Assembly (NCBI GenBank): GCA_964510645.1
Contig: CAZECJ010000002.1
Location: forward strand, 11,432-75,431
Source of the DNA: an uncultured Verrucomicrobiota bacterium
GTDB lineage: Bacteria; Verrucomicrobiota; Kiritimatiellia; CAIQIC01; Lenti-01
DNA: 64,000 bases
Reading direction: 5' to 3'
Positions 25,187 to 42,419 of this stretch are shown here, piece after piece (the first letter of the stretch is position 1; every line of letters begins with the position of its first letter). The notes below the pieces were generated by a model. The model had not been told where the DNA came from and searched no databases. It saw only the letters and a list, made by a program, of their open reading frames with translations. A program made the position numbers and the translations under genes.

Positions 25187-25779
25187 ATCCCGTGCGATTG
25201 AATTCCATCCATTACGTGCAATACCGCTTGGGCCTGGCGGCGGCCTCCACCCAGACGTCGGAAACGGAACGGGCATGCCTGCGCCGCCATGCGGCAGGGA
25301 AAAAGCGTCTCGTGGAGATCGGCGTGTGGCACGGCGTCAACACGCGGGCGTTTCGCGAGGCGATGTCGCCGGAAGGCGTGATTCTCGCCGTGGATCCCTT
25401 TCAGCGCTGTTTTTTCGGCATCCGCGGTTTCGGCTGGGCGCGGCGCATCGCCCATCGGGAAGTGGAGAAGACGAGCAACGGCCGGGTGGTGTGGATCGAG
25501 CGGTTGGGCCGGGAGGTGCCGTCGCTGGAGGAGGTCCAGCCCTTCCTGCCGGTGGATTTCATCTTCATCGACGGCGACCACACCTACAAGGGCTTGCGCG
25601 ACGATTGGCAGGCCTGGAAGGACCACGTGGCCGCCGGCGGCATCGTCGCCCTCCACGATTCGCGTTGCCGGAATGGATGCGGGTCGGAACGATTCACCCG
25701 GGACGCGATCCTACGGGACTCTGGATTCGAGCGGACGGACGAAATCGACTCCCTGACGGTCCTGAGGAGGAAGGCATGA
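25183..25779 (+). CDS. Class I SAM-dependent methyltransferase (Methyltransf_24-like)
   Basis: 'RLVEIGVWHGVNTRAFREAM...ILAVDPF' and 'FIFIDGDHTYKGLRDDWQAWKDHVAAGGIVALHD' are present. Both ends show ATGA overlaps. Confidence 0.7.
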   Translation: MNPVRLNSIHYVQYRLGLAAASTQTSETERACLRRHAAGKKRLVEIGVWHGVNTRAFREAMSPEGVILAVDPFQRCFFGIRGFGWARRIAHREVEKTSNGRVVWIERLGREVPSLEEVQPFLPVDFIFIDGDHTYKGLRDDWQAWKDHVAAGGIVALHDSRCRNGCGSERFTRDAILRDSGFERTDEIDSLTVLRRKA

Positions 25780-26720: not shown

Positions 26721-26721
26721 C

Positions 26722-27879: not shown

Positions 27880-27884
27880 GCGCC

Positions 27885-28691
27885 ATGTTGTATTTCGTGA
27901 TTCCATTGCGCGATCGAAGCACCACGTCCGACTGGCCCGGCGTCTGCCGCTTGCTGGAGCGCACGCTGGCTTCTGCCTGCGGACAGCTTCACGAAGATTT
28001 CCGCGCCGTCGTGGTTGGCCACAGCCGGCCGATCGGAATCCAGTTCCCGTCCCGCTGCGAGTTCCTCGAGGTGCCGTTTCCGCCCCCCGCGGTCCATCCA
28101 ACCGATGCCGGGGACCGCCGCCTGTTTCTCCTGCATTCCGACAAGGGGCGCAAGCTGTTGCATGGGCTGGAGCGGGCCCGGGCGATTCCGGGTTCCTACG
28201 TGATGTTTCTCGACGCGGACGACCTCGTCAGCAACCGCCTGGCCGGTTTTGTCGCGGAACGGGCCGGCGCGAACGGATGGTATGTCGATCGCGGCTACCG
28301 CCTGGACGAGCATCTGCGGCACGTCGTGTTCTGGCGACGCCGCTTCTACGAAGAGTGCGGATCCAGCTACTTGATCCGTTCGGACCTCGCGCCGTTCCCG
28401 GATCGGCTGGACGATACCCTGGACCTGTCGGATTATTTCGTCCGGCGATACGTGGTGCATGCCTACATCCGCTCGGATCTGGAGAAAAGGGGAGTCCCGC
28501 TGGCCCCCCTGCCGTTCTACGGCGCGATCTATTCCTTCAACGGCCAGAACTTCTATGCATCCCGTTACCGGAATTCCGATCCGCCGTGGAGAACATGGGG
28601 GCGGTGGGCCTTCAAGAGCCGATGGATCACGCCGGCGTTGCGCCGGGAATTCGGCATTCGCCCCGTGCCAGTTGAATCGACAAGCGTATAA
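27885..28691 (+). CDS. GT-A-like glycosyltransferase (divergent family 2)
   Basis: 'MLYFVIPLRDRSTTSDWPGVCRLLERTLASACGQ...FRAVVVGH' and 'YVMFLDADDLVSNRL' (DxD) are present. Confidence 0.55.
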   Translation: MLYFVIPLRDRSTTSDWPGVCRLLERTLASACGQLHEDFRAVVVGHSRPIGIQFPSRCEFLEVPFPPPAVHPTDAGDRRLFLLHSDKGRKLLHGLERARAIPGSYVMFLDADDLVSNRLAGFVAERAGANGWYVDRGYRLDEHLRHVVFWRRRFYEECGSSYLIRSDLAPFPDRLDDTLDLSDYFVRRYVVHAYIRSDLEKRGVPLAPLPFYGAIYSFNGQNFYASRYRNSDPPWRTWGRWAFKSRWITPALRREFGIRPVPVESTSV

Positions 28692-28706
28692 ACCCCGAAG
28701 GAGATC

Positions 28707-29375
28707 ATGATGACATCGCGAACTGCGGCTCGACTCAAGCGTTTCATCGCCGACCACGTCGCCTTGCGGCGCCTGTATGGCGCGCTCTTGATTTTGCGCT
28801 GGCGCAAGGAATTCGAACGGCTGGGCATCATCGAAAGCCAGTTGCGCGGCGAGCCGGTGGATTCGAACGGCCAGCCCCTGCCGTGGCTGTCCATGCCGGC
28901 GATCGCTCTGCTCGAAGCCCGCGCGCCGTCCGGCTTGTCGGTGCTGGAATATGGCAGCGGGAATTCGACGCTGTGGTGGGCCCGCCGCGCCGCCCGCGTC
29001 GTCGCCGTCGAGCACGATGCTGCCTTCCACGCCCGCCTCGCGCCCCGGCTGCCGGAAAACGCCGTCAGCCTGCTGGTTCCGGATTCGCCGGACGGAGCCT
29101 ACGAGCAGGCGCCCGCCCGTTACGGCCGGGTTTTCGACGTGATCGTGATCGACGGCGCGCGGCGGATCGAATGCGCCCAGGCCTGCCTGCCCCTGCTGAA
29201 GGAAGCCGGCGTGATCATTTACGACAATGCGGATTGGAAGAACGCCGCCCCCGGGTTGGCGCATCTGCGGGAACAGGGTTTTCGCTGCCTGGAGCTCCCG
29301 GGCCTGTGCGCGCTCCTGACCTGGTCCAATACCACGGCGATCTTCTATCGGGACGGCAATTGCCTCGGGCTTTGA
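28707..29375 (+). CDS. SAM-dependent methyltransferase-like protein
   Basis: 'LSVLEYGSGNSTLWWARRAARVVAVEHD' is a motif-I-like GxGxS segment. 'FDVIVIDGARRIECAQACLPLLKEAGVIIYDN' is also present. Confidence 0.5.
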   Translation: MMTSRTAARLKRFIADHVALRRLYGALLILRWRKEFERLGIIESQLRGEPVDSNGQPLPWLSMPAIALLEARAPSGLSVLEYGSGNSTLWWARRAARVVAVEHDAAFHARLAPRLPENAVSLLVPDSPDGAYEQAPARYGRVFDVIVIDGARRIECAQACLPLLKEAGVIIYDNADWKNAAPGLAHLREQGFRCLELPGLCALLTWSNTTAIFYRDGNCLGL

Positions 29376-29477
29376 ACGCCGCAGACAGCTCCGCCGCCAT
29401 GCGGGACATGCCCTCCAGGCTCCGGTCGGCTTCACGAGAGGCTGGAGCTGGCGCGCGTGAATTGATAGATTCCAGAC

Positions 29478-31613
29478 ATGCAGCCTGATGATTCCAGCGC
29501 GCACGGAAGGCGGGCCTCCGACGTCAGCGTGGTGATTCCGACCTATCGGCGCGGAGAAGTCCTGCTGCGCACGCTGGATCTGCTCTTCCGGCTCGATCCT
29601 CCGCCCGGGGAGATTCTGGTCGTGGATCAGACGGAGCAGCCGTCGGCCGAGGTGGCGCAAGCGCTGCGACGGCTGGAATCCGCCGGCCGCATCCGGGTCG
29701 TCCGCTTCTCGCCGCCCTCCATTCCCCGCGCGATGAACGTGGGCCTGCGCGAGGCGAAGGGAGCCGTGGCGCTGTATCTGGACGACGACGTCGAGCCGGC
29801 GGCGGACCTCGCGGCGGCGCACGCGGCCCGTTACGCCGGCGGTTGCGCCGCCGTGTGCGGCCAGGTGCTTCAGCCGGGCGAAGTTCCCGATCCCGCCGCG
29901 AACCAGGGGCCGCGCGCGGACGGCTTCCGCGCCGATCTCGACTTCCGGTTCTGCGGCACGCGCGAAGCCGAATTGGCCAGCGTGATTTCGTGCAACTTGT
30001 CGGTCGACCGCGAAACGGCCCTGTCCATCGGCGGCTTCGACGAGCAATTCATCGGGTCCGCCTATCGCTACGAAACCGACTTCGCGAGGCGTCTGGTCGC
30101 GGCGGGGCACCGGATCCTGTTTGCTCCCGAAGCATCCCTTCGCCATTTGCGCCTGGCTACCGGGGGCACGCGGAGCTTGGGCGACCACCTGCGCCGTCCA
30201 TCGCCCTTGCATGCCGTCGGCGACTATTATTTCGCGTTTCGCCACGCTCGCGGCGCGGAGCGATGGGCCTATCTGGCCCGGCGGCTGAGGCGGGAGACGT
30301 GCAACCGATTCTACGCGAAACGCCCGTGGCAGATTCCCGCCAAGGCCATTTCGGAACTGCGCGCGTTGGGCATGGCGGTCCGGTTGCATCGCCAAGGGCC
30401 GCGCTGGGGCGGGGCGGACCGGAACGCCCGGCCGTATCGCCTTTTCGCGGTGGAGACGCATCCCATCCAGTACAAGGCGCCGTTGTTCCGGCGGCTGGCA
30501 GCGGATCCGCGCATCGATCTGACCGTGCTCTACGCGATGATGCCCGACGCTGCGCAACAGGGCGCGGGCTTTGGCGTCCCGTTCGCCTGGGACGTGCCCT
30601 TGCTCGGGGGCTACCGCCACGAGGTGCTGGAGAACCGCGCGAAGCAGCCGTCCGTGACCGCCTTTTCCGGGTGCGACACGCCGGGGCTGTTCGAGCGCTT
30701 GCGCCGCGACCAGCCCGATGCCGTGCTGGTGAACGGCTGGGGGACGAAGACCAGCCTGCAAGCCCTCTGGGCGTGCCGTCGCTTGGGCATCCCCTGCCTG
30801 GTGCGCGGCGAGGCGAACCTTCTGCGTCCTCGCGCGGTCTGGAAGCATGGGCTGCATCGGTTGCTGTTGCGGAACTACCGCGCATTTCTCGCCATCGGTT
30901 CCGCCAATCGCGATTTCTACCGCTTCCACCGCTGCCGGGAAGACCGCATCTTCTGGGCTCCCTATGCGGTGGACAACGAGTCGTTCGCCGCGCAAGCGGC
31001 CGCGCGCACCGGGCGCCGGAACGAATTGCGCGCCGCGTTCGGCATTCCGCCGGCGGCCGTGGTTTTTCTTTTCGCCGGCAAATTGGAGGAAAAGAAGCAT
31101 CCGCTGGATTTGCTGGAGGCCGTGTCGCGCCTGCCGGCGGAGGTGCGCGCGCATGCCCACTTGCTGATCGCCGGCGATGGCCCTCTGCGCGGCGGATGCG
31201 AACAAGTGGCGCGCGAGCGGAAGCTGCCGGTTTCATTTGCGGGATTCCTCAACCAGGCGCGGCTGCCCGATGCCTATGCGGCGGCCGACGTGCTCGTGCT
31301 GCCGTCCGATGCAGGCGAAACCTGGGGGTTGGTCGTCAACGAAGCCATGGCGTCGGGTCGTCCGGCCGTCGTTTCGCGCGCGGCGGGGTGTTGCGCCGAT
31401 TTGATCGTGGAGGAGAAGACGGGGTATTCCTTCGCTGCGCGCGACGTCCGGGGGCTGGCGGACATCCTGGCCGGCTATCTGCGCGATCCCGGTCTTGCCG
31501 CCCGCCAAGGGCTCGCGGCGGCGGAACAGATCCGCTCATTCGGCTCTGAAACGGCGGCGGCCGGCATCGCGGCGGCCGTGGCGGCTTGCGCGGAGAGGCG
31601 GCGGCCATGTTGA
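29478..31613 (+). CDS. Two-domain glycosyltransferase: GT2 (N) fused to GT4 (C)
   Basis: The N-terminal half carries 'VSVVIPTYRRGEVLLRTLDLLFRL...ILVVDQT...LYLDDDVEP'. The C-terminal half carries 'VLVLPSDAGETWGLVVNEAMASGRPAVVSRAAGCCADLI'. Confidence 0.8.
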   Translation: MQPDDSSAHGRRASDVSVVIPTYRRGEVLLRTLDLLFRLDPPPGEILVVDQTEQPSAEVAQALRRLESAGRIRVVRFSPPSIPRAMNVGLREAKGAVALYLDDDVEPAADLAAAHAARYAGGCAAVCGQVLQPGEVPDPAANQGPRADGFRADLDFRFCGTREAELASVISCNLSVDRETALSIGGFDEQFIGSAYRYETDFARRLVAAGHRILFAPEASLRHLRLATGGTRSLGDHLRRPSPLHAVGDYYFAFRHARGAERWAYLARRLRRETCNRFYAKRPWQIPAKAISELRALGMAVRLHRQGPRWGGADRNARPYRLFAVETHPIQYKAPLFRRLAADPRIDLTVLYAMMPDAAQQGAGFGVPFAWDVPLLGGYRHEVLENRAKQPSVTAFSGCDTPGLFERLRRDQPDAVLVNGWGTKTSLQALWACRRLGIPCLVRGEANLLRPRAVWKHGLHRLLLRNYRAFLAIGSANRDFYRFHRCREDRIFWAPYAVDNESFAAQAAARTGRRNELRAAFGIPPAAVVFLFAGKLEEKKHPLDLLEAVSRLPAEVRAHAHLLIAGDGPLRGGCEQVARERKLPVSFAGFLNQARLPDAYAAADVLVLPSDAGETWGLVVNEAMASGRPAVVSRAAGCCADLIVEEKTGYSFAARDVRGLADILAGYLRDPGLAARQGLAAAEQIRSFGSETAAAGIAAAVAACAERRRPC

Positions 31614-32968
31614 ACCTCATGCTGCTGCTGGTCTTGGGCGGCTGCGCCTTGGCCTTGGCGAATTGGCGATGGGGGATCGCGGCCGCGATCGTGATCGGCC
31701 TGCTGCAGGATCCCCTGCGGAAACTGGTCCCGGGCTCTCCCGGCTATCTGGCCATGGCCTCCATGCCGATTTGGCTGGCCACCATGGCTTCCGCCGCGTT
31801 TGCCGACCAACTGCCGATCCAGCGCTTCTTCTCCGGTTTTCCTCGCTTGGGAAAATGGATCGTCGCCATGATCGCCTATCTGGCGATTCCGGCGATGATT
31901 TCGGCCACCTACGGGCGCAACACCTGGATGATCACGCTGCTGGGCGCGTTCGTCTATCTCACGATGTTCTTGGTGCTGGTGGCGGGGTGGCGCTATCCCG
32001 GCGGGACCCACCGCATTGGATGGATCTTGGGTTTCTACGTGATCGTCGCCGCGATCCTGTTGGCGGGCGGACCGATGGACGCCTGGGGCTGGAGCGAACG
32101 CTTTCCCGCCATCGGCACCGCCGCGATGGGCCACGTCTGGGTGACGCATCGCACGGGCGCGGCCGTGTACATGTTGGCGGGGTTCTTCCGCGGTCCGGAC
32201 GTGATGGGCTGGCATGCGGCGCTCGTATTCATGATTTCCGTCATCATGGCGTTTCGGGCCCGCGGCGCGGACCGCTGGCTCTGGATCGCGCTGGCCGTTT
32301 GGGGCGTGCTGAACATCTGGTTGTGCGGCCGCCGCAAAATGCTTTCCATGGTTCCGATTTTCATGGGGTGCTATCTGTTGCTGGTTTTCCGCTTCAAGGA
32401 CGTCCGGCGCATCGGATCGATCCTGGGCACGGTGCTGATGATCGGCGGGCTGGGGTGGTATTTCATTTCCTCGCTCTATCGAAGCGCCGCCGTCGAGGCT
32501 TTCTATCTGACGGCGTTTACCCAGGCGGAGGAACAAATCCAGCGCCATGGAGTCGATACCGTCCTGAGCACGGTCAAACAGGCGGGATTCTGGGGCTATG
32601 GACTGGGCATGTCGCAGCAAGGCATCCACCACATTTCGGCCGACAAGCCCAAGGTCTGGCAGGAAAGCGGCCCCGGCAAACTGGTCGCGGAATTCGGCGT
32701 GCCCGGGAGCCTGCTGCTCGCCGCGCTCGGCTTCATCTTCCTGAAGACGGCCTATCTGGTTGTGCGCGGAAGCCGGCGAGACGAATCGTTTTATTTCACG
32801 GCGGGCCTGTTTTCCGTGTTGGTGGCCAATCTGACCTCGGCGGTCATTTCCGCGCAGATTTTCGGCGATCCCTTCGTGGCCATGTTCCTGGCGTTTTTGG
32901 CGGGACTGCTGTTCTCGAACGCCCGCGCGGCCTCCGTGCCGGTGGCGGGAAAGGCGGAGCACGCATGA
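31607..32968 (+). CDS. Wzy/O-antigen-ligase-like polytopic membrane protein (second copy, distinct sequence)
   Basis: The product has about 10-12 TM segments. 'LWIALAVWGVLNIWLCGRRKML' and 'GYGLGMSQQGIHH...GPGKLVAEFGVPGSLLL' are present. The start has a 7-nt overlap with the upstream gene. Confidence 0.55.
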   Translation: MLNLMLLLVLGGCALALANWRWGIAAAIVIGLLQDPLRKLVPGSPGYLAMASMPIWLATMASAAFADQLPIQRFFSGFPRLGKWIVAMIAYLAIPAMISATYGRNTWMITLLGAFVYLTMFLVLVAGWRYPGGTHRIGWILGFYVIVAAILLAGGPMDAWGWSERFPAIGTAAMGHVWVTHRTGAAVYMLAGFFRGPDVMGWHAALVFMISVIMAFRARGADRWLWIALAVWGVLNIWLCGRRKMLSMVPIFMGCYLLLVFRFKDVRRIGSILGTVLMIGGLGWYFISSLYRSAAVEAFYLTAFTQAEEQIQRHGVDTVLSTVKQAGFWGYGLGMSQQGIHHISADKPKVWQESGPGKLVAEFGVPGSLLLAALGFIFLKTAYLVVRGSRRDESFYFTAGLFSVLVANLTSAVISAQIFGDPFVAMFLAFLAGLLFSNARAASVPVAGKAEHA

Positions 32969-34053
32969 AACGACTTGCGTGGATTCGGACGTCGCCGCCG
33001 GACATCCCGGGCAGCATGGCGGCGTATGGCGATTTGGTGCGGGAGGCGACGGCTGCCCTCGCCGGCGAATGGTCGCTGACGGCCTGCGATTGCTTCGATC
33101 CCCGCGGCGGCACCTCCATGTGGCGGCACCACCTCTGGCGGCTGCGCAATGTCTGGCGCGTGCTCGCGGAGCATCCCGCCGATCTCTATCACTGGCTGGA
33201 CGGTTCGATGGCCGCTTTTATCCCAAGCTCTTTGCGCGCGCGCAGTCTCGTCACGGTCCACGATCTGATTCCGTTGTTGCAGCTGCGCGGCGAATTGCCC
33301 GAACGGCCCAGCCTGCCCGCCGCCGGATTGATCCGGCGCGGCATCCGGACCTTGCGCGGCTGTGCCGGCTGGTGCGCGGATTCCCGGGCCACGCAAGCGG
33401 ATTTGGCGCGGCTGGCGGGCATCGGTGCGGGCGTCGCGGTCGTGCCCGTGGCGTTGCGCCCCTTGCCGGCGCCGACTTCCGTTTCGATTCCCGGACTGGA
33501 TCCACCCGCGCGCTTCATCCTGCACGTCGGCAACAACGCAGCCTACAAGAACCGGGTGGGCGCGCTGGACGTCTTTGCCCGCCTGATCGATTTTCCCGAC
33601 CTGCATCTGGTGCTGGTCGGTCCGCCGCCCACCGGGGCGCTGCGCGCCGCCGCCGCGCGGTTGCCGCGCGTGCATTTCGCCGGGCCCGTGGCCGACGCGC
33701 AATTGCACGGCCTCTATCGTCGCGCCGCGTTGTTCCTTTTTCCCAGCCGCTACGAAGGCTACGGCATGCCGGTGCTCGAAGCCATGGCCGCCGGCTGTCC
33801 CGTCGTTTGCTCCGCCGCGCCCTCCCTCGTCGAAGTGGCCGGCGACGCGGCGCGCTTCGCCTCCGCGTCGGATCCCGCCGCGCTGGCTTCGCAATGCCGG
33901 GCTTTGCTCGCGGACGAAGCCCTCCGGCAGGAGATGACCGAACGCGGCCGGGCGCGCGCCGCTTCTTTTGACGTTGCTTCGATGGGGCGTTCCCTGATGA
34001 AATGGTACGACCAAGCGTTTGCCGCGCTGGAGGAGAAGGAGTCCCATGCCTGA
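32965..34053 (+). CDS. Glycosyltransferase family 4
   Basis: 'FILHVGNNAAYKNRVGAL' and 'LFLFPSRYEGYGMPVLEAMAAGCPVVCSAAPSLVEV' are present. The start shows an ATGA overlap. Confidence 0.85.
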   Translation: MKRLAWIRTSPPDIPGSMAAYGDLVREATAALAGEWSLTACDCFDPRGGTSMWRHHLWRLRNVWRVLAEHPADLYHWLDGSMAAFIPSSLRARSLVTVHDLIPLLQLRGELPERPSLPAAGLIRRGIRTLRGCAGWCADSRATQADLARLAGIGAGVAVVPVALRPLPAPTSVSIPGLDPPARFILHVGNNAAYKNRVGALDVFARLIDFPDLHLVLVGPPPTGALRAAAARLPRVHFAGPVADAQLHGLYRRAALFLFPSRYEGYGMPVLEAMAAGCPVVCSAAPSLVEVAGDAARFASASDPAALASQCRALLADEALRQEMTERGRARAASFDVASMGRSLMKWYDQAFAALEEKESHA

Positions 34054-34621
34054 ATCGTCCGCTTCCCGCATCCGGGTGGACCGGGCGGCCTGTCCGAGTC
34101 CCCACTCGGCCGCCAACAAGCTGGCGCGTCTGCTGTGGCAGGTGGCCGGGCTGCTCCTGTTCCGTCCCTCGCCGTGGTTTTGGCACGCTCCGCGCCGCGC
34201 GCTGCTGCGCCTGTTCGGCGCGCAGGTCGGAAAACACGTCCAGATCATGCCGTCCGTCCAGATCTGGGCGCCGTGGAACCTGGCGCTGGGCGACCATGCG
34301 ACCGTCGGCTCCGGCGTGGATCTCTACGACGTGGACCGCATCGAGATCGGCGCCCACGCCACGGTCAGCCAGCGCGCCTTTCTGTGCACGGCCACGCACG
34401 ACGTGGACCACCCGAACATGCCGCTGCAGACCGCGCCCATCCGGATCGGGGCCGGCGCCTGGGTCTGCGCCGAGGCCTACGTGCATCCCGGAGTGGCGAT
34501 CGGCGTGGACGCCGTCGCCGGCACGCGCGCCGTGGTGCTGCACGACGTGCCGCCGGGACAGATCGTCGGCGGCAACCCCGCGAAATTCATTCGCCTGCGG
34601 AAGCTCGGGAACGCGGATTGA
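34046..34621 (+). CDS. Hexapeptide-repeat O-acetyltransferase (WcaF-like)
   Basis: 'RRALLRLFGAQVGKHVQIMPSVQIWAPWNLALGDHATVGSGVDLYDVDRIEIGAHATVSQRAFLCTATHD...IRIGAGAWVCAEAYVHPGVAIG' shows left-handed beta-helix repeats. Confidence 0.8.
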   Translation: MPESSASRIRVDRAACPSPHSAANKLARLLWQVAGLLLFRPSPWFWHAPRRALLRLFGAQVGKHVQIMPSVQIWAPWNLALGDHATVGSGVDLYDVDRIEIGAHATVSQRAFLCTATHDVDHPNMPLQTAPIRIGAGAWVCAEAYVHPGVAIGVDAVAGTRAVVLHDVPPGQIVGGNPAKFIRLRKLGNAD

Positions 34622-34624
34622 CCG

Positions 34625-35458
34625 ATGGCGGAACCCGTTTCCATCTCGGCGGTCGTTCTTTCCCACAACGAAGCGGCCAACCTGCCGCGCTGCCTCCGCG
34701 CGCTGCGCGACTGCGCCGAGACCGTCGTCGTGGACGACGGCAGCACCGACGACAGCCGGCGCATCGCCGCCGCGTGCGGCGCCCGGGTCGTCGAACATCC
34801 GTTCGTTTCCTTTGCCGACCAGCGCAATTGGGCGATGGCGTCCGCCGGGCTCCGGTGCGATTGGGCGCTGCACCTGGACGCCGACGAGGTCATGACGCCG
34901 GCCGCGCTGGAAGAGATCCGCCGCCGGCTGCCGGCGCTGTCGCCCGGCTCCGCCGGTTTTTTGGCGCGCAAGGTGATGCTGGGGCAGAAGTGGCTGCGGT
35001 TCAGTTCGGATTATCCCGTGTTCGTTCCGCGGCTGATTCACCGGCAGGGGCCGCGCTACGCGATGCGCGGCCACGGCGAAACGCTGGCTTCCTCGGCGGA
35101 GGCGTCCGTCTATTTCGCCGAGCCGCTGTTGCACTACAATTTTTCCAAAGGCTGGGCCGAATGGCGCGCGCGCCACTTGCGCTACGCCGCCGCCGAAGCC
35201 GCGCGCATCCGTTCCGGCGCGTCTGCGGTTTCGGGCCGTGCGTTGTTTGCGAAGGACCGATCCCGCCGGCGCGCCGCGCTGCGGGCGCTGTCCTACCGGC
35301 TGCCGGGCCGGCCGGCGCTTCGGTTCCTCTATGCCTATCTGCTGCGCCTTGGATTGTTAGATGGGCGGGAGGGCTGGACTTTCTGTCGCGCCATGGCCTC
35401 CTATGAGCGCATGATCGACGACGCTTTGCGCCAGCCGCCGGAAACCGGGAGCCCATGA
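34625..35458 (+). CDS. Glycosyltransferase family 2
   Basis: 'ISAVVLSHNEAANLPRCLRALRDCAETVVVDDGSTDDSRRIA' and 'LHLDADEVM' are present. Confidence 0.8.
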   Translation: MAEPVSISAVVLSHNEAANLPRCLRALRDCAETVVVDDGSTDDSRRIAAACGARVVEHPFVSFADQRNWAMASAGLRCDWALHLDADEVMTPAALEEIRRRLPALSPGSAGFLARKVMLGQKWLRFSSDYPVFVPRLIHRQGPRYAMRGHGETLASSAEASVYFAEPLLHYNFSKGWAEWRARHLRYAAAEAARIRSGASAVSGRALFAKDRSRRRAALRALSYRLPGRPALRFLYAYLLRLGLLDGREGWTFCRAMASYERMIDDALRQPPETGSP

Positions 35459-36648
35459 ACGTCGTGCTGGTCAACCAGTTCTTTCCGCCGGCGGCGGCGC
35501 CGACGGGAATCCTGCTGGGCGATCTGGCCGCAGAACTGGTGCGCCGGGGACACGGCGCGTCGGTCATCGCTTCGGCATCGGGCTACGGAGCGGGTCTGGG
35601 CGCGCCGGTGCCCGAAGGCGTGCAGTTGATCCGGGTCGGGCCGGAGGCCCGGCATCGGGATGGACCCGCCTCGAAATTCGCAGATTATCTGTCGTTCGCT
35701 CGCGGGGCTTGGCGGGAACTGTCGCGCATGCCTCGTCCGGATGTGCTGCTCGGCATGACCACGCCGCCGTTCGTCGGACTTTTGGGCGCGCACCTGCAAA
35801 AACGCCACGGCGTGCCGTTCGTGCTGTGGTGCATGGACCTCTATCCCGAGGCGCTGGCGGCGCATGGCTGGCTGCGCCCCTGGAATCCCATGACGCCTGT
35901 TTTGAAGGCCTTGGCGCGGGAAGAACGACGCCGGGCTTTCGCCGTCGTCGCCCTCGGGCCGGACATGGCGGAGCGGCTGGCGGCCTCGGGTGCTCGCCGC
36001 GTGGAAACGATCCCCGTCTGGAGCGCTCTCGAGATCTCGCCGGCGCGGGAAGCCGAAGCGCGCGCCTTGCGGCGCGCGCGCGGATGGGGCGACGATGAGA
36101 TCATCCTGCTCTACAGCGGCAACATGGGCCGCGCCCACCGCGCGGAGGAATTCGCCGCGCTGGCCGAACGGCTGCGCGGTCGCCCGCCGCGCTGCCGGTT
36201 CGTCTTTTCTGGCGACGGCCCGCAACGGAGGGAATGGCAGCGGAAATGGGACGGGCTTTTCGAATTCATGCCGGCGGTGGCCGGAGATTCGTGCGCGGCC
36301 CATTTGCTCGCGGCCGACGTCCATCTGGTTTCCCAGCAGCCGGCGTGGACGGGCATCGTGGTGCCAAGCAAGTTTCCGGCCGCCTGCGCCCTGGGAAAGC
36401 CCGTCGTTTTCGCCGGGCCGCCGGACAGCGCCGTCGGTCGCTGGCTGGCGGAAGCCGACGCGGGGTGGATCTTGCCGCCCGGCGACGCCGCCGCTTGCGG
36501 AAACGCTGCCCGCGACGTTCCCGAGGCGGGCTTGCGCGCCCCCAAGGGCGCGAATGCGCTGCGCCTGTTCCAAGAGCGGTTCACGCCGGCGGCGAACTGT
36601 GGTAAGGTTGCGGACCTGATCGAACAGGCCGCGAAAGAACGGACATGA
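35455..36648 (+). CDS. Glycosyltransferase family 4 (WcaI-like)
   Basis: 'MNVVLVNQFFPPAAAPTGILLGDLAAELVRRGH' is a WcaI-type N-terminus. 'LLYSGNMGRAH' is present. The start shows an ATGA overlap. Confidence 0.8.
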   Translation: MNVVLVNQFFPPAAAPTGILLGDLAAELVRRGHGASVIASASGYGAGLGAPVPEGVQLIRVGPEARHRDGPASKFADYLSFARGAWRELSRMPRPDVLLGMTTPPFVGLLGAHLQKRHGVPFVLWCMDLYPEALAAHGWLRPWNPMTPVLKALAREERRRAFAVVALGPDMAERLAASGARRVETIPVWSALEISPAREAEARALRRARGWGDDEIILLYSGNMGRAHRAEEFAALAERLRGRPPRCRFVFSGDGPQRREWQRKWDGLFEFMPAVAGDSCAAHLLAADVHLVSQQPAWTGIVVPSKFPAACALGKPVVFAGPPDSAVGRWLAEADAGWILPPGDAAACGNAARDVPEAGLRAPKGANALRLFQERFTPAANCGKVADLIEQAAKERT

Positions 36649-38540
36649 GCTTCGAAGCCATCCTGAAGTATCCGTCGGTTTTTCTGGCGGGCATGCTGGC
36701 TGCGCTCGTGCTGACGCCGGTTTGGCGGCGGCTCGCGCCGCGCTGGGGATTCATGGATCGGCCCGGCGACCGCAAAGTCCATCGGCGTCCCGTTCCCCGC
36801 GGCGGCGGTTTGGCCGTATTCATCGGATTCCACGTCGCCTGCGCGGTCGTGTTTCTGTTTCCCTGGAAGCCGTTTGCGGGACAGCTCTCCATCGATTGGT
36901 GGTTTCGATTTCTGCCGCTGAGCGCGGGGGTGGTGGCGCTGGGGCTGCTGGATGACCGGTACGACCTCAAGCCGCTGGTCAAATTGCTGGACCAAATCGC
37001 GCTGGGCGCCGCGGCCTACGCGCTGGGCTTCCGATTGCAGAATTTGTTTGGTTTTCCCTTGCTTGGCTGGGTGGATTTCGCGGCGACCGTGTTCTGGTTC
37101 GTCGCGCTGATGAATGCGTTCAACCTGATCGACGGCGTGGACGGGCTGGCCGCCGGCATCGCGCTGATCGCCGCCGCCGGCATCGGCCTGTCGCTCGTGT
37201 TCCGCGGCGCGCCGGGCGACGTGTTGCTGTTTCTGGGCTTCGCGGGCGCCTGCCTGGGTTTCTTGCGCTACAATTTCGTTCCCGCCAGCGTGTTCCTCGG
37301 CGATGCCGGCAGCCTGTTTCTGGGATTCACGCTGGCGGCGTTGTCCATTTCCACGAACTCGAAAGCCTCGTTCATGGCCGGCCTCGGCGTGCCGATGCTG
37401 GCCGTGGGGGTGCCGCTGTTCGACGTGGTTCTGGCCGTCTGGCGGCGCTCCATGCGCCGGATCTTGAATCACGCTTCGGGACAGGATGCCGGGGCGGGCA
37501 TTGAAAACGCGGATGCGGACCATCTGCACCACCGCTTGCTGCGGCGGGGATTCGGGCAGGGGCAGGTGGCCGGATTCCTGTACGCCGCGACCCTGCTGCT
37601 CGTCCTCGTCGGCCTGCTGGCCAGCGCGTTCAACGATCGGGCGCTGGGCATTCTGGTGCTGGCCTTCCTGCTGGCGGCCTACACCGTCGTCCGCCATCTG
37701 GCGGGCATCGAACTGCACGAGAGCGGCCAGGTCGTCCTGCAGGGCCTGGCGCGGCCCGTGCGGCGGAATCGGACGCTCCTGTTCTATCTCGTGGGCGACC
37801 TCCTCATCTTGAATCTCGTCCTGCTGGCGGGGCACGCGCTGCTGGATTTGCAGGACGGCGTGCTGGACGTCTCCCTGAAAGCCGCCTGGCTGGGCTCCGC
37901 GCCCATGGACCTGTTCATTCCGTTCGCGGTTCTGTTGTTGTTCCGGTCCTACTCGCGCGTCTGGTATCTGGCGCGCGTGTCGGAATACGCCTCCACGGGG
38001 CTGGCCGTGGCGCTGGGCTACGCCATCGCCTGCGGGCTGCAGTTGCTCGTCGCGCGGAGCCGGGGCGAGGTCCTGTCGCTGGCGCTGTACTATCTCCTGT
38101 TGGCGGGGCTGGCCGCGCCCGCCGTGGTCCTGACCCGCGCCGCCTTGCGCGTGGTGCAGGATCTCATGCAATGGCGGACGCGCGGGCCCGGGCCCGACGG
38201 CGTCGTTCCGGCGCGCGCCCTCGTCTGCGGCGCGGGCTACCGCACCACCCTGTTTCTCCGGCAGATTTCGTTCCGCGTCCAGGATCGCGCTCCCGTCGAG
38301 GTCGTTGGGCTCGTCAGCGAAGACGCCGCCATCACGGGCCACGCCGTCCACGGCATCCGCGTCGTCGGCACCTGCCGCGAATTGCCGGCGCTGATTGCCC
38401 GCCACCGCGTCGACGTCGTCTATCTCGTCGAAGCCGTGGCCGCCGCCGAAGTCGAGAATTATGGCCGGATGCTGCAGGGCCTGCCCGTGCGGCTGGTCCG
38501 TTGGGACATCGTCGAGACGGACGTTCCGCTCCATGGATAG
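36645..38540 (+). CDS. Polyprenyl-phosphate sugar-1-phosphate transferase (MraY/WecA family) with long C-terminal extension
   Basis: 'RWGFMDRPGDRKVHRRPVPRGGGLAVFIGF', 'LLDDRYDLKPLVKLL', 'NAFNLIDGVDGLAAG' and 'FLGDAGSLFLGF' are WecA/MraY motifs. Extra TM segments follow, then a Rossmann-like 'ALVCGAGYRTTLF...VVGLVSED...VVGTCRELPALIARHRVDVVYLVE'. Confidence 0.85.
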   Translation: MSFEAILKYPSVFLAGMLAALVLTPVWRRLAPRWGFMDRPGDRKVHRRPVPRGGGLAVFIGFHVACAVVFLFPWKPFAGQLSIDWWFRFLPLSAGVVALGLLDDRYDLKPLVKLLDQIALGAAAYALGFRLQNLFGFPLLGWVDFAATVFWFVALMNAFNLIDGVDGLAAGIALIAAAGIGLSLVFRGAPGDVLLFLGFAGACLGFLRYNFVPASVFLGDAGSLFLGFTLAALSISTNSKASFMAGLGVPMLAVGVPLFDVVLAVWRRSMRRILNHASGQDAGAGIENADADHLHHRLLRRGFGQGQVAGFLYAATLLLVLVGLLASAFNDRALGILVLAFLLAAYTVVRHLAGIELHESGQVVLQGLARPVRRNRTLLFYLVGDLLILNLVLLAGHALLDLQDGVLDVSLKAAWLGSAPMDLFIPFAVLLLFRSYSRVWYLARVSEYASTGLAVALGYAIACGLQLLVARSRGEVLSLALYYLLLAGLAAPAVVLTRAALRVVQDLMQWRTRGPGPDGVVPARALVCGAGYRTTLFLRQISFRVQDRAPVEVVGLVSEDAAITGHAVHGIRVVGTCRELPALIARHRVDVVYLVEAVAAAEVENYGRMLQGLPVRLVRWDIVETDVPLHG

Positions 38541-39645
38541 ACTGCTGGTCAATGCGCTGTCCGTCGCGAACCCGAGCGGGCTCCACGTGTTGCTTGGGCA
38601 TCTGGATCAGGTGGCGGATGCGCTGAAGGATCGCGTCCGCCTCGTGGTGCTCTGCCGCGAAGACCTGGCCGGTCTGCGCGCCGGGCTCGGGGAGCGCGCG
38701 GATTGGGAATTCGCGCCCGCGTCCACGCGCGGCTGGCTCCGGCGCGCATGCTGGGAACGCGCGCATCTCGCGCGGCTCGTCCGGAAGCATGGCGCCGGCA
38801 TTTACTTCACGCCCAGCGGCATCGCCGCGCATGGGCTGGACGTTCCCCAGATCGTCTTCTGCCAGAATCCGTGGGCGCTGGTTCCCGCGGCGCGGCGGCG
38901 GCGCGACTTTTTCAAGGCGTGGCTTCAGCGCCGGGCCTATCGCCGCGCCATGCGCGCGGCCGACGTCCTGGTGTTCAATTCCCGCTACATGCAGAACGCC
39001 TATCGCGCAAACGCGGGCTTTGCGGAAAAGCGAGGCCTCGTGGTCTATCAAGCCGTGGACGCCGCCCCGCCCGCCGCCGTCGCCGTCCCGCGCAAGCCGG
39101 AGCAAATCCTTTGCGTGTCCGTGATGGCGCCGCACAAGAACGCGGAAGCGCTCGTGCGAGCCTTCCGCGACGTGCGCGACGTCCATCCGGACGCGCGTCT
39201 CGTGCTCGCCGGCTCTTGGCCGGATCCCGCCTACGAGCGCCAAATCCGCGCCCTGGTCGGGGCGCTGGGCCTGCGCGACGCCGTCGAGTTCGCCGGCTTC
39301 GTTGCGCGCGACCGGCTGGACCGGTTGCATGCCGAGTCGCGCGTCTTCTGCCTGATGAGCCGTTGCGAATCGTTCGGCATTCCCGCCATCGAGGCGCAGC
39401 GGTTCGGCACCCCCGTCGTCAGTTCCACGGCCGGCGCCATTCCCGAGATCTGCGGGCCGGGCGGGCTTTTCCGCGATCCCGACGACGTCGCCGGCATCGC
39501 CGCCGCCCTGCGGACGCTGCTGGAAGACGACGCCGAATGGCGGCGGCTTTCCGTTTTGGCGCGGGAAAATGCCGGACGATTTACCTGGAGCGAATGTTCG
39601 CGTCCGCTCGTCGAGTTGGTGGAGAAAATGGCCCGTGGGCGCTAA
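38533..39645 (+). CDS. Glycosyltransferase family 4
   Basis: 'ILCVSVMAPHKNAEAL' and 'VFCLMSRCESFGIPAIEAQRFGTPVVSSTAGAIPEI' are present. Confidence 0.85.
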   Translation: MDRLLVNALSVANPSGLHVLLGHLDQVADALKDRVRLVVLCREDLAGLRAGLGERADWEFAPASTRGWLRRACWERAHLARLVRKHGAGIYFTPSGIAAHGLDVPQIVFCQNPWALVPAARRRRDFFKAWLQRRAYRRAMRAADVLVFNSRYMQNAYRANAGFAEKRGLVVYQAVDAAPPAAVAVPRKPEQILCVSVMAPHKNAEALVRAFRDVRDVHPDARLVLAGSWPDPAYERQIRALVGALGLRDAVEFAGFVARDRLDRLHAESRVFCLMSRCESFGIPAIEAQRFGTPVVSSTAGAIPEICGPGGLFRDPDDVAGIAAALRTLLEDDAEWRRLSVLARENAGRFTWSECSRPLVELVEKMARGR

Positions 39646-41272
39646 GCCGGAAACGGGCCGGGGCTGGGCTTGGTTGATGGTGACGCTGGCGGGGGTGTTC
39701 CCGTTCGCGTCGGACATGCTGCGCAATTTCCAGCTCTTCGCGCCGACGCAGATGGCGTGGTCCTTTGCGGCGGTACTGGCGGCGACCGGGGGGACGTATG
39801 CGTTGGCCCGGACGATTCTCCGGGGGGTCGAGGCCGCGCTGCGCCGCGCGGGCCGGCCGCCCGGGCCCCGTCTGCGGTCCGTCGTCTTCGCGCTGGCCGC
39901 GGCGCTGGTCTTCGCCGGGTTTCTCTACGATGCCAACATGACGGAGCTGCGCGTGGATTTTGGTCTGCCCCGGCTGGCGGCCGCTTCCATCGTCGTGGCG
40001 TTGTTCGCCGTCTACGGGGCCGTCGCAGAGCGGCTCGGCGCGAAACGAACGTGCCTCTTGCTGCTCGCGCTGCTGGCGTTCCGGTCGGTCCGGGCGGGGT
40101 GCGAGATCTCGGGCGCGCTCTTGCGGGGGCACGCCCTGATGTCCCCCGAGGAAATCCGCGTCTATCAAAACGTGAAACTGTCCCGCACGCCGAACGTCTA
40201 CTTCATCTGCCTGGAGTCGTATCACGACTTCGGCGACATGGAGGTGCTGTACGGGCTCGACAACTCGGCGTTCCGCGGATTCCTGGAAACCAACGGATTC
40301 GCGGTGGCGGAGGGCATCTGCGCCAACGACTGGCACACGATGTCGAGCCTGCATTCCTTTTTCCGGATGGGGCATCACTACGGGTCGGGCACGTTCGGCA
40401 ACCACGATTCCCTGCATGCGCGCGGATTCCTCTCGGGCAGCGGAACCTACTACAACCCCGTGTTGAACGTCCTGAAGCGCAACGGCTACGCCATCGTCTA
40501 TCTGCTGCCGTCCGACTACTACTATCGCCCGGGGACCGGTCTGGTGGACGTGTCGCTGCTGGATCGCTCGTGGCCGCTGGCGCCGCTCAAGGTCAGCCTG
40601 CCGCGGTTCGTCGGCCGCGAACCGATCACCTACGTCGAGGACTATGAGCGGAAGCTGGCCGACGTCCTCTCCGCCTGGCCCGGCGACCGGCCCGCGTTTT
40701 TCTTCGCAAAGCTGGGCGCGGAGCATGTTCCCAAGCACTACGATTGCCGGACGGACCGGGCCGAATTCGTCGAGCAGTATAAAAAATCGGTTGCGGACGG
40801 CAATCCCCGGATCGAGTCGCTCTGCCGCCGGATCATCGCGAAAGATCCCGGCGGGATCATCGTGTTGGCCGGCGATCACGGCGCGCAAAGCTACCAGTCG
40901 AAGGAACGCCGGTTCCAGGACGTCATGCGCGAAGACGGCATTCCGGCGGAGCGCATCGTGCGGGACCTGCACGGCGTGCTCTTGGCCATCCGCTGGGGCG
41001 AAGGGCTGTCGCCGGAACCCTATCCCTTCCGGAGCCTGGCCAACGCGATGCGGTTCGTGTTGTACCGGCTGAGCGGCGACGAGGCGCTGCGGAAAACGGC
41101 CGTCCACGATTCGTCCTACGTGCTCGAAATGGACGGCCTGCTTTACCAGACCACGGACGATGGGCGACCGCTCTCCGAATGGAAAGCCGTGCCCCGGAGT
41201 CCTCCGGAACGCGGACCGGACGATCAGGGCCGGCGGTACAGCGCGCCCCGCACCGGCCGGACAAGCCAATAG
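39635..41272 (+). CDS. Membrane-anchored alkaline-phosphatase/sulfatase-superfamily transferase (LtaS/phosphoglycerol-transferase-like)
   Basis: N-terminal TM segments are followed by 'TPNVYFICLESYHDF' (LtaS-like 'lES' metal/nucleophile region) and 'IIVLAGDHGAQ'. The start is GTG 39635 or ATG 39677. Confidence 0.55.
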   Translation: MGAKPETGRGWAWLMVTLAGVFPFASDMLRNFQLFAPTQMAWSFAAVLAATGGTYALARTILRGVEAALRRAGRPPGPRLRSVVFALAAALVFAGFLYDANMTELRVDFGLPRLAAASIVVALFAVYGAVAERLGAKRTCLLLLALLAFRSVRAGCEISGALLRGHALMSPEEIRVYQNVKLSRTPNVYFICLESYHDFGDMEVLYGLDNSAFRGFLETNGFAVAEGICANDWHTMSSLHSFFRMGHHYGSGTFGNHDSLHARGFLSGSGTYYNPVLNVLKRNGYAIVYLLPSDYYYRPGTGLVDVSLLDRSWPLAPLKVSLPRFVGREPITYVEDYERKLADVLSAWPGDRPAFFFAKLGAEHVPKHYDCRTDRAEFVEQYKKSVADGNPRIESLCRRIIAKDPGGIIVLAGDHGAQSYQSKERRFQDVMREDGIPAERIVRDLHGVLLAIRWGEGLSPEPYPFRSLANAMRFVLYRLSGDEALRKTAVHDSSYVLEMDGLLYQTTDDGRPLSEWKAVPRSPPERGPDDQGRRYSAPRTGRTSQ

Positions 41273-42282
41273 AGCCCGCGCAGCGCGGGCGGGAGCGCGA
41301 ACCACCGGAAATCGCCGTCGCCGGGCGTGAGGATCCGCCGCAGGCGATAGAAGAGGATTTCCGGCCGGGCCATGAAAGTCTCGTGGAAGCGGCGCAATTC
41401 GCCGCCATCCATCGCCCGCGCGTTTCCGCGGAGCCGAGCGACGGCTTCGGCGACGACGTCGGGCGGGGCGGCGTCGGGGCCCAGGCCGGGGCCGAAGATC
41501 GCGTCGGCGACGGCGCCGCCGGCCGCCAAGGCGTTTTCCGCGAAGGGGCATTTCTTCGCCAGCGCCCGGGCTTCCGGAACAATCCCCGGATGCCGCGCCA
41601 ACAGGCCGGCGACGTCCACGAGCCACGCGATCCGTTCCCAGCCGTGCCAAACCGCATGCAGGCAACCCAGCAGCAGATGCAGGGCCGGCGTCGGCGCGCG
41701 GATTTCGCCGCCTTCCAGTTCCAGGGTTGCGAACGAATCTTGCCAGCGCCGGTTGCCGGGTCGAGGCCACGGATATTGCGGGGGAAAGAAGCGGCGTTTG
41801 ACTTCCACCGTGAATCCCTCCGGATGGCGGAACGCCACGCCCCATCCATAGTGCCACAGATGCGCGCGCCGCCACGGATCTGCGATTTCCGGGGCATAGC
41901 CCGCTTCCTCCATTCCGGCGGCGAAAGCCGGATAATCGCGGCCGGCGCAAACGAAGTCGAGATCGTCGAAGCTCCGCAGGCCGGGTTCGGGCCAAGCCTG
42001 CGCCGCCAGCGCGGGGCCTTTCACCAGCGCCAGCGTCCGCAGGCGGGGCGCCAGCCGGGCGAAGAGGCGGACCGCTTCGTGCGCATGGCGCGCCGCATGC
42101 CGGGCCTGTCCGTAGGCCGCGGTCCGCAGCGCCGCGCCGGGATCCGGCAGGCCCGCCTGCAACAGTCCCAACAGCCGGTGCCGCCGCGCCCACGGAAACA
42201 GCCGCTCCCGCGCCTCCGGCGCCAGAACGGCGCCGGCGGCGTCCGGCAAGCCGTGCAGCGCGCGGAAGGCCTGCCGGGCCAT
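41224..42282 (-). CDS. Uncharacterised nucleotidyltransferase family protein (NTP_transf_5-like)
   Basis: 'LLGLLQAGL...VRLFARLAPRLRTLALVKGPALAAQAWPEPGLRSFDDLDFVCAGRDYPAFAAGMEEAGY...VEVKRRFFPP...LHLLLGCLHAVWHGWERIAWLVDVAGLL' is the typical layout of this family (vKG..la...Y....R...DiDlLV......a...l...Gy). ATG 42282 was chosen because ORF-track start 42378 lies in the palindrome array. The 3' end overlaps the LtaS-like gene by 49 nt. Confidence 0.7.
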   Translation of the reverse strand: MARQAFRALHGLPDAAGAVLAPEARERLFPWARRHRLLGLLQAGLPDPGAALRTAAYGQARHAARHAHEAVRLFARLAPRLRTLALVKGPALAAQAWPEPGLRSFDDLDFVCAGRDYPAFAAGMEEAGYAPEIADPWRRAHLWHYGWGVAFRHPEGFTVEVKRRFFPPQYPWPRPGNRRWQDSFATLELEGGEIRAPTPALHLLLGCLHAVWHGWERIAWLVDVAGLLARHPGIVPEARALAKKCPFAENALAAGGAVADAIFGPGLGPDAAPPDVVAEAVARLRGNARAMDGGELRRFHETFMARPEILFYRLRRILTPGDGDFRWFALPPALRGLYWLVRPVRGALYRRP

Positions 42283-42347
42283 TGGAAGGAAGTCGTCCAC
42301 GCCCGGATTCGACACTTCCCGCCTTTGCCCGTCAACCGCAAAGACGG

Positions 42348-42419
42348 TTTTTCCACGCTGTGGAAAAAAGTTTTCCACGCTATGTAAAAAATCACCAAAA
42401 AATTACGTAGCATGGAAAA
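42348..42419. repeat. Array of 2-3 copies of the TTTTCCAC-N3-GTGGAAAA palindrome
   Basis: The copies are TTTTTCCACgctGTGGAAAAA (42348..42368, perfect 9-nt arms), TTTTCCACgctATGTAAAA (42371..42389) and the degenerate AATTACGTAgcATGGAAAA (42401..42419). Centre spacings are 22 and 30 bp. The array starts 66 nt upstream of the nucleotidyltransferase start. Confidence 0.85.

Follow-up and report, generated by a model that had tools for sequence, protein, structure and literature searches.

The nucleotidyltransferase gene and its locus

The window analysed here is a stretch of 64,000 nucleotides (G+C about 67%) from contig CAZECJ010000002.1 of an uncultured Verrucomicrobiota bacterium of the class Kiritimatiellia (assembly GCA_964510645.1). 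All its genes from about 7.7 to 41.3 kb lie on the plus strand, and encode in this order a PqqD-family chaperone, a radical S-adenosylmethionine (SAM)/SPASM enzyme, a short peptide, an HprK-like kinase, FecR-like, BBP2_2/EpsL-like, Poly_export, Wzc-like and Wzy_C proteins, an ABC-2 permease and a Wzt_C ATPase of an ATP-binding cassette (ABC) transporter, an epimerase, a set of glycan assembly enzymes, a phosphoglycosyltransferase (PGT), a GT4 glycosyltransferase and a sulfatase-like protein. At the far end of the array, on the minus strand, resides a gene (41224..42300) for a nucleotidyltransferase-fold enzyme of the family PF14907, hereafter the transferase. This glycan super-locus, which measures about 35 kb, is conserved in Kiritimatiellia and in related bacteria of the Planctomycetes-Verrucomicrobia-Chlamydiae (PVC) superphylum, and the transferase gene is a fixed part of it. 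Tentatively, the transferase may act on the peptide phosphorylated by the kinase, at the beginning of the glycan pathway.

The minus-strand open reading frame (ORF) ending at 41224 matches the Pfam profile PF14907 (NTP_transf_5) over positions 6-235 of 249, with an E value of 3.1e-29 and 102.7 bits against a gathering threshold of 31.2. The family had been named in a first-pass annotation of this DNA, and the profile search bears out that assignment. NCBIfam models give no match, and nothing was found by searching PDB sequences by profile. The protein, 358 amino acids long, probably starts at the GTG at 42300, and not at the ATG at 42282 initially taken as the start, because the N-terminus VDDFLPMARQAFR matches the orthologue N-termini MxxFLxxxRQAFR. 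All of the 120 best homologues listed carry PF14907; their identity declines gradually from 99% to about 42%, and those with a named source come from metagenome-assembled genomes (MAGs) of Kiritimatiellia. A scan based on the orthologue alignment, in which each GTDB species was represented by one genome, returned 37 loci, corresponding to 30 orthologue loci and 7 distant homologues. L numbers below denote these and further loci examined.

The 'VKG...R...DLD' layout that had drawn attention to the gene is found in the segment LVKGPALAAQAWPEPGLRSFDDLDFV. In 15 aligned orthologues K88-G89, R103, D107-L108-D109 and E160 are unchanged. K94-G95 and D113/D115 are unchanged across the clade and homologues from lasso-peptide clusters, and the residue aligned to E166 of the clade enzymes, the third acidic one, is either E or D in the latter. 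The Pol-beta-type catalytic signature, G-[SGP] ... D-x-D plus a third acidic residue, is therefore present in the transferase. The AlphaFold2 model (pLDDT 87.6, pTM 0.89) predicts a nucleotidyltransferase fold. Its best PDB matches in Foldseek are LnuA, ANT(2'')-Ia (including 5cfs and 4xje), JHP933 and TM1012; nucleotidyltransferase matches at the top have probabilities of 0.98-1.00 with weak E values (1e-3 to 0.2), and FKRP is a weaker match (E 0.35). The best explanation of these features is that the gene encodes an active, cytoplasmic Pol-beta-fold enzyme of PF14907. Scanning the surroundings of the gene for sigma-70 promoters and terminators gave nothing above chance.

The transferase gene is convergent with the sulfatase-like gene (39569..41272, plus strand), and the 3' ends of the two overlap by 49 bp. 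The overlap is kept in L001. Beyond the transferase gene lie a tRNA-Arg gene (42543-42619) and unrelated genes encoding a HEAT-repeat protein, a CAP/PPC protein and a fusion of RpiB to serine hydroxymethyltransferase. The transferase gene therefore closes the locus, as the first-pass annotation had it.

The peptide cassette at the head of the locus

The opposite edge of the locus is occupied by four genes on the plus strand. The first (7696..7977) encodes a PqqD-family peptide chaperone (PF05402, E 4e-12), whose best NCBIfam match, below cutoff, is to the lasso PqqD model NF033530 (E 2.5e-7). The second (7974..9077, start approximate) encodes a radical SAM/SPASM peptide maturase (PF04055, E 4e-25), which matches SPASM maturase families, in all cases below their cutoffs. 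The third (9068..9256) specifies a precursor peptide of 62 amino acids, which has the motif RPYExPxI in its leader, contains two Cys and ends in Gly-Ser. The fourth (9259..10170, with an ORF start possibly as early as 9211) encodes an HprK-like P-loop kinase of the ScmC family, carrying the motif GRSGAGKST. The kinase matches the NCBIfam models TIGR04352, TIGR04249 and TIGR04355 (HprK_rel_A, ScmC and HprK_rel_B) weakly, and its homologues carry a precomputed match to PF27840 (ScmC). When lasso-type kinases and nucleotidyltransferases are used as tblastn queries, only this kinase and the transferase are matched significantly, so that the window holds one HprK-like kinase and one PF14907 gene. 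Neither a lasso cyclase nor a B2 protease was found in the window by tblastn with the cyclases of L040 and L046 and the B2 protease of L040.

Precursors from six lineages are 60-63 amino acids long, and share the leader [RK]-P-Y-x-x-P-x-[ILV]-x-R-V-x-L-A, followed by E-T-L, two Cys and P-P. The C-terminal G-S is unchanged in all six. The pattern, terminal Ser included, is intact in L047 as well, where the precursor gene (8264-8446) has been relocated ahead of the PqqD gene. Leaders of the Y-x-x-P-x-L type lead to recognition mediated by an RRE, a peptide-binding domain of the kind found in PqqD. Both the leader and the lasso-type match of the chaperone would fit RRE-mediated recognition as in lasso systems, and the invariant terminal Ser would, by analogy, be the requirement of a PadeK/PsmK-like kinase.

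The context of the cassette is stable. In five further lineages (48-65% kinase identity) genes for giant proteins with a Peptidase_C25 (C25) domain are followed by the PqqD, radical SAM, precursor and kinase genes, and these by FecR-like, BBP2_2, Poly_export, Wzc-like and Wzy_C genes. The ABC transporter genes come next in 4 of the 5. As a separate observation, L054 keeps cassette and export genes, and features a PLDc_2 gene in the place of the ABC transporter. The stop of the kinase gene overlaps the start of the next gene in L049, L054, L057 and L058, and the cassette is therefore operonic with the export genes.

Linkage of cassette and transferase gene in relatives

In four genomes, with identities as low as about 51%, cassette and transferase gene reside on the same contig. 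The distance between kinase and transferase genes is 31.05 kb in the window (31.0 kb when rounded, as the others are), 25.6 kb in a 150,831-bp contig (L004/L013), 30.3 kb in a 101,528-bp contig (L049/L011) and 29.4 kb in JAAZFE010000124.1 (L056/L019). The transferase gene is convergent with the rest of the locus in the first three; in the last it has been inverted and is co-directional, still in terminal position. Nine pairs of nucleotidyltransferase and kinase clusters, drawn from the best 120 homologues listed, have longest contigs of equal size (348,789; 474,415; 101,528; 216,647; 151,779; 96,633; 42,111; 35,444 and 61,076 bp), a proxy for linkage, and 2 of the 9 come from the genomes measured directly. 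In addition, a 132,270-bp contig carries both an orthologue of 41% identity (L031) and a kinase of 49% identity (P0232). The comparison suggested by the first-pass annotation, whether the two elements flank glycan loci in relatives, was thus answered in the affirmative by the four measured contigs: the bracketing of the glycan locus by cassette and transferase gene is conserved across the lineage.

Homologues outside the lineage

The seven distant homologues (L040-L046) reside outside the Kiritimatiellia clade, in a deltaproteobacterium, Binataceae, Gemmatimonadetes and an Erythrobacteraceae, and are 24-26% identical to the transferase across a full-length alignment. All seven are found in lasso-type clusters. 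The gene immediately upstream encodes an HprK-like kinase in six of them and a PqqD protein in the seventh. The order in L040, according to NCBIfam matches, is PqqD chaperone, lasso cyclase, HprK-related kinase, nucleotidyltransferase and ABC exporter; a lasso cyclase and a kinase were similarly recognised in L046, a lasso PqqD chaperone in L044, all of these matches, L040 included, being below curated cutoffs. Homology extends over the full length of the proteins. In tblastn searches the window transferase matches the lasso-cluster enzymes with E values from 7e-21 to 1.6e-7 (28% identity in the best segment), and both share an invariant H..HGW and a C-terminal LP..L..LY...RP.R motif.

In lasso precursors the C-terminal Ser is phosphorylated by HprK-type (PadeK-type) kinases, which otherwise show little specificity (PMC8498205). 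Attachment of one or two hexoses to this phosphate requires PsmN, an NTP transferase that is itself uncharacterised and remotely similar to ANT(2''); the D134A/D136A mutant of PsmN is inactive (PMC8498205; PMC6993621). The structures 5cfs and 4xje, retrieved with the transferase model, are also the published remote structural matches of PsmN (PMC6993621). The literature agrees with what the first-pass annotation had stated of this chemistry, and the co-occurrence of the kinase and nucleotidyltransferase families, which it had likewise put forward, is borne out by the lasso-type clusters. The link between PF14907 and HprK-like kinases is supported at the family level.

Other genes of the locus and its surroundings

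Downstream from the kinase gene, the region 10545..21060 (plus strand) encodes export and polymerisation functions: a FecR-like protein, a BBP2_2/EpsL-like barrel, a Poly_export (Wza-like) protein, a Wzc-like tyrosine autokinase, the Wzy_C protein and the ABC-2/Wzt_C transporter. Inserted between the ABC-2 permease and ATPase genes is a gene (19201-19572) whose product belongs to the 23S rRNA intervening-sequence proteins (PF05635). The Wzy_C-domain protein is encoded at about 16967-18271. Among the members of the Wzy_C family are the O-oligosaccharyltransferases PglL and PilO, the latter of which attaches glycan to the C-terminal Ser of pilin; by analogy, the Wzy_C protein would offer an alternative route for placing glycan onto the terminal Ser of the precursor.

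Glycan assembly genes follow at 20994..36648 (plus strand), and are collinear in relatives. They include about ten glycosyltransferase genes, and encode the epimerase, several GT2 and GT4 enzymes, a methyltransferase, a GT2+GT1 fusion, a 460-residue membrane protein and a hexapeptide acyltransferase. Next comes the gene for the PGT (36645..38540, plus strand), a WecA/MraY-family polyprenyl-phosphate sugar-phosphate transferase of 631 residues with an extra C-terminal region (PF00953, E 3.7e-32; TIGR02380 WecA, E 2.6e-31). The protein looks like a fusion. Its N-terminal half is WecA-like (TIGR02380 over residues 18-343), and some 230 residues of its C-terminal part (384-611) resemble the membrane and Rossmann-like region found at the N-terminus of WcaJ/EPS_sugtrans enzymes (TIGR03025 positions 2-212). 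The GT4 glycosyltransferase gene (38395..39645, plus strand; PF00534, E 1.8e-33) and the sulfatase-like gene complete the co-directional array. The product of the latter is a membrane protein of 567 residues with a weak sulfatase/alkaline-phosphatase-superfamily domain (PF00884, E 0.002, below cutoff). Its gene is found beside the transferase orthologue in L001, L011, L012, L014, L018, L022 and L025, and is absent from the other orthologue loci.

Upstream from the cassette, two giant surface proteins are encoded at 3..7521 on the plus strand (3-3221 and 3562-7521). They carry SdrD_B/CLIPPER/GEVED or ice-binding-like repeats and a PorU-like C25 domain (NF033707, E 4e-51, below cutoff). Giant C25 proteins precede the cassette in every cassette locus extending upstream of the PqqD gene (L004, L047, L049, L052-L058); in L008 a giant C25 gene lies directly downstream of the transferase gene, from 11467. 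Giant C25 genes were also seen upstream of a presumed locus in GCA_964399775.1 (P0243). PorU is a sortase which attaches proteins to a glycan, and by analogy the giant C25 proteins may belong to the same surface-attachment system as the locus. On the opposite side, the single ORF at 45115-46854 encodes a 579-residue fusion of ribose-5-phosphate isomerase B (LacAB_rpiB) with serine hydroxymethyltransferase, and has counterparts of 93-94% identity beside the locus in L011, L012 and L034.

A proposed role of the transferase at the start of the glycan pathway

The reading favoured here is that the transferase acts on the phospho-Ser product of the kinase at the outset of the glycan pathway. Three links speak for it: the operon joining cassette and export genes, the adjacency of transferase and PGT genes, and the association of the transferase family with HprK-like kinases. 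It is the simplest reading that uses all three, and is proposed with somewhat less than even confidence. In this scheme the PqqD chaperone would bind the YxxPxL-like leader of the 62-residue precursor, and the radical SAM/SPASM enzyme would modify the core, probably at the two Cys. The ScmC/HprK-like kinase would then phosphorylate the invariant C-terminal Ser. Using two metal ions held by D113/D115 and the third acidic residue, the transferase would put a sugar, a sugar-phosphate or a nucleotidyl group onto the phosphate, following the example of PsmN and pseudomycoidin. Since the transferase gene is so tightly linked to the PGT gene, the peptide would thereby be tied to the beginning of glycan assembly. 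We infer every one of these chemical steps, including the action of the kinase on that Ser and the encounter of the transferase with the peptide.

The product could be a phospho-glycosylated peptide, or a glycan primed or capped by a peptide, possibilities that the first-pass annotation had raised. A more explicit version, in which the phospho-Ser of the modified peptide is joined by a phosphodiester or pyrophosphate to the first sugar through the transferase together with the PGT, and the conjugate primes or caps a polysaccharide exported by Wza/Wzc/Wzy_C and Wzm/Wzt, must be regarded as unlikely.

Several observations weigh against an encounter of the transferase with the phosphopeptide. The foremost concern the neighbourhood of the transferase gene, for which every protein of the window was compared by tblastn with the orthologue loci. 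Of the 30 GTDB orthologue loci, 23 have the PGT gene at 5 kb or less from the transferase gene, and in 12 of these the two are direct neighbours (8-125 bp). Intervening genes are variable, and encode the sulfatase-like protein, the GT4 enzyme or a GDSL lipase (L009). The two genes are convergent in most loci; they are co-directional, the PGT gene first and with gaps of 8-36 bp, in L008, L024, L026, L033 and L039. Transposase genes precede the pair in L008. The pair stands alone in Tichowtungia (L024), where it is surrounded by Mur-ligase-like, QueC-like, aminotransferase and nucleoside diphosphate kinase genes. Adjacency to the PGT gene survives inversions and the loss of every other neighbour, down to 39% identity. 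Conversely, no PqqD, radical SAM or kinase gene was found within 10 kb of the transferase gene in the orthologue loci examined, nor a transferase gene within 10 kb of the kinase gene in any cassette lineage examined. On the neighbourhood evidence, the primary functional partner of the transferase is therefore the initiating PGT, not the kinase. The first-pass annotation had presented the transferase as the missing partner of the kinase; this idea draws support from the bracketing and from the kinase-adjacent homologues outside the clade, but the transferase gene never comes within 10 kb of the cassette, and its tightest linkage is to the PGT gene. An antibiotic-resistance or toxin-type nucleotidyltransferase was considered as well, and rejected in view of the deep, rearrangement-proof synteny with the PGT gene.

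Seven loci lack a PGT gene, and only L016/L050 among them has full flanks. There (GCA_050176815.1, JBFXHR010000006.1; positions 10001-11083 of locus L050) an orthologue of 73% identity is an orphan with no glycan genes within 10 kb, lodged between restriction/NYN-type genes and aromatic amino acid genes (DAHP synthase, prephenate dehydratase and related). L054 (JGI Ga0534105_00319, 340,134 bp; kinase at 193,225-194,124) is a possible natural case of a cassette without a transferase, as no nucleotidyltransferase cluster among the matches listed maps there. All co-occurrence has been observed within one lineage, largely from MAG contigs, and synteny in a single lineage cannot separate function from shared descent. 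Given the low identity to the lasso-cluster enzymes, the substrate may differ from theirs. Radical SAM chemistry acts at the C-terminus of MftA, the mycofactocin precursor, and the conserved C-terminal GS could instead be a radical SAM site of the mycofactocin type.

A repeated palindrome does not strengthen the case either. TTTCCA-N5-TGGAAA has 9 matches in the window against 0.09 expected, and is AT-rich amid a genome of 67% G+C. A pair of TTTTCCAC-N3-GTGGAAAA palindromes, 22 bp apart, is found at 42350..42388 (copies at 42350 and 42372), 50-88 bp upstream of the transferase start, and a three-copy array of the same palindrome at 7581..7650 (7581, 7612 and 7634), 46-115 bp upstream of the PqqD gene. 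Further copies lie upstream of the second giant C25 gene (3252-3268) and of a secretin gene (57408-57446; 57408 and 57430); the ninth match, with one mismatch, falls inside the PGT gene. Copies are often paired 22 bp apart, the spacing within arrays being 22 or 31 bp. In relatives the palindrome is found upstream of the transferase orthologue in L001, L002/L013, L010 (5506-5605), L014, L020 and L027, and upstream of the PqqD gene in L052-L054 (about 8250-8395). It is missing upstream of the PqqD gene in several relatives, L004 among them, and occurs elsewhere, upstream of the pyruvate phosphate dikinase gene (L009/L021; 5011-5133 in L009), after a C25 gene (L051) and at 12 sites in Tichowtungia L024. 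Presence of the palindrome upstream of both transferase and PqqD genes had been pointed out at first, and is correct, but the element precedes other genes as well. It was rejected as an argument for specific co-regulation, given the four intergenic sites in the window, the dikinase and C25 sites in relatives, and the lack of any copy before the PqqD gene in L004. The palindrome is a real lineage-wide element of promoter regions, and not a signature linking transferase and PqqD genes; it probably serves a broad regulon, as an operator or as an element associated with promoters.

Alternative roles

The neighbourhood just described can be taken at face value. In this alternative the transferase, together with the PGT, works on a lipid-linked or growing glycan and never meets the peptide: it may add a phospho-substituent or a nucleotide-derived group in the manner of LicD/FKRP, or a terminal cap read by the Wzt_C domain of the ABC exporter, and the cassette would be a separate module of the same locus, perhaps regulatory or cofactor-like. 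Such a role is almost as likely as the favoured one, because the neighbourhood favours the PGT and the lasso enzymes are of low identity. That Wzt_C recognises caps is established for the O9a antigen of E. coli, and a Wzt_C ABC transporter and a methyltransferase are encoded in the locus. The close-set co-directional pairs, the stand-alone pair of Tichowtungia, and structural neighbours acting on sugar hydroxyls (ANT(2''), LnuA) or transferring phospho-alcohols (FKRP, a weak match) all point the same way. A role confined to the glycan leaves unexplained, however, why the nearest outside relatives are all kinase-coupled enzymes of ribosomally synthesised peptides, and why a kinase and a Ser-terminated precursor reside in the same locus without a transferase of their own. 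Moreover, action on a glycan is not known for any member of PF14907; the sole other context of the family in the literature searched is an uncharacterised phosphonate cluster (PMC8942020).

Quite improbable is the idea that the transferase makes or edits an activated donor, such as an unusual nucleoside diphosphate (NDP)-sugar or NDP-alcohol, for the glycosyltransferases of the locus. Zyubko et al. leave open that the PsmN product serves a host glycosyltransferase (PMC6993621), and apart from an epimerase no other recognisable sugar-nucleotidyltransferase function is encoded in the locus. Yet the large C-terminal helical domain shared with the lasso-cluster enzymes suggests a macromolecular or peptide substrate, and classical sugar-1-phosphate nucleotidyltransferases differ in fold.

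That the gene is a mere passenger, held at the locus edge by descent and serving an unrelated cytoplasmic function (small-molecule nucleotidylation, or a resistance- or toxin-like activity), is very improbable: it would suit the orphan in L050, the separate upstream region with its general intergenic palindrome and the fold shared with antibiotic nucleotidyltransferases, but not the persistence of PGT adjacency through inversions, the overlap kept in L001, or the fact that neither a HEPN or antitoxin partner nor a mobile-element context was seen.

What the locus adds

So far the pairing of such a kinase with a PF14907 enzyme has been known from the tailoring of lasso peptides alone, and the chemistry placing sugars on a peptide phosphate is barely characterised. 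The literature searched contains no paper tying PF14907, ScmC/HprK-related kinases and PqqD proteins to polysaccharide loci; it yielded only lasso papers and the single mention of a phosphonate cluster. What is new here is that a radical SAM peptide replaces the lasso peptide, that kinase and transferase genes stand far apart in a glycan locus some 35 kb long, and that the transferase is tied by its neighbourhood to a WecA-like enzyme. The split arrangement is conserved across MAGs of Kiritimatiellia and related PVC bacteria. If kinase and transferase cooperate, the locus would provide a route to phospho-linked peptide-polysaccharide conjugates, which have not been described for bacterial envelopes, and PF14907 would gain a second biological role. 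If they do not, the transferase would represent the first glycan-pathway function for the family.

Relation to known systems

The closest parallel is provided by PsmN of the pseudomycoidin cluster of Bacillus pseudomycoides and by psmN-like genes. As in the window, these encode enzymes of an uncharacterised nucleotidyltransferase family with a remotely ANT(2'')-like fold (5cfs, 4xje) and an essential D-x-D, in clusters that also encode a kinase of the HprK type, a PqqD-family chaperone and a precursor whose last residue is Ser. The likeness to PsmN itself rests on its published description, whereas sequence homology was established with the lasso-cluster nucleotidyltransferases L040-L046. In contrast to PsmN-type clusters, the window has no lasso cyclase or B2 protease, its peptide machinery being of the radical SAM/SPASM type, and the transferase gene is not adjacent to the kinase gene, from which it is separated by 31 kb, but stands beside the PGT gene in a glycan locus.

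The combination of a PqqD-like protein, a radical SAM/SPASM enzyme, a short peptide and an HprK-like kinase recurs in SynChlorMet cassettes (ScmC/ScmD/ScmE/ScmF) and in the HprK-related kinase A and B families. The window proteins score well below the cutoffs of the corresponding models (38 vs 125 for ScmC, 17 vs 100 for ScmD, 65-76 vs 400 for ScmE/ScmF, 39 vs 200 for HprK_rel_A); a match is given only by the broader Pfam model PF27840 (ScmC), precomputed for the kinase homologues. The window also differs from SynChlorMet in having one radical SAM enzyme instead of two, and a cassette fused into a glycan export operon. No paper on SynChlorMet or HprK-related kinase A cassettes was found in the literature searched, and the cassettes themselves are uncharacterised.

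In the mycofactocin system (MftA/B/C plus the glycosyltransferase MftF) a PqqD-type chaperone and a radical SAM/SPASM enzyme act on a small precursor, and the peptide-derived product is then glycosylated. The radical SAM enzyme of the window matches TIGR03962 over its full length (E 5.6e-29), with a score of 101, below the cutoff of 265. The window differs from mycofactocin loci in lacking MftD and MftE, in a precursor ending in GS and not in VY, and in the presence of a kinase and a whole export locus.

At the structural level ANT(2'')-Ia, LnuA, JHP933, TM1012 and FKRP/LicD have a Pol-beta-type core in common with the transferase (Foldseek probability 0.90-1.00). Identity to ANT(2'')-Ia, LnuA, JHP933, TM1012 and FKRP is 11-17%, however, with query-normalised TM-scores of 0.24-0.34, and the N-terminal (about 80 residues) and C-terminal (about 150 residues) helical domains of the transferase are without counterpart in them.

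The WbdD/Wzt_C system, finally, effects chain termination and cap recognition of O-antigens exported by ABC transporters. WecA-type initiation, a Wzm/Wzt exporter with Wzt_C, a kinase and a methyltransferase are all encoded in the locus described here. In WbdD kinase and methyltransferase are joined, whereas the window kinase is HprK-like and belongs to a peptide cassette, and to the elements shared with the O-antigen system the window adds Wza, Wzc and Wzy_C functions.

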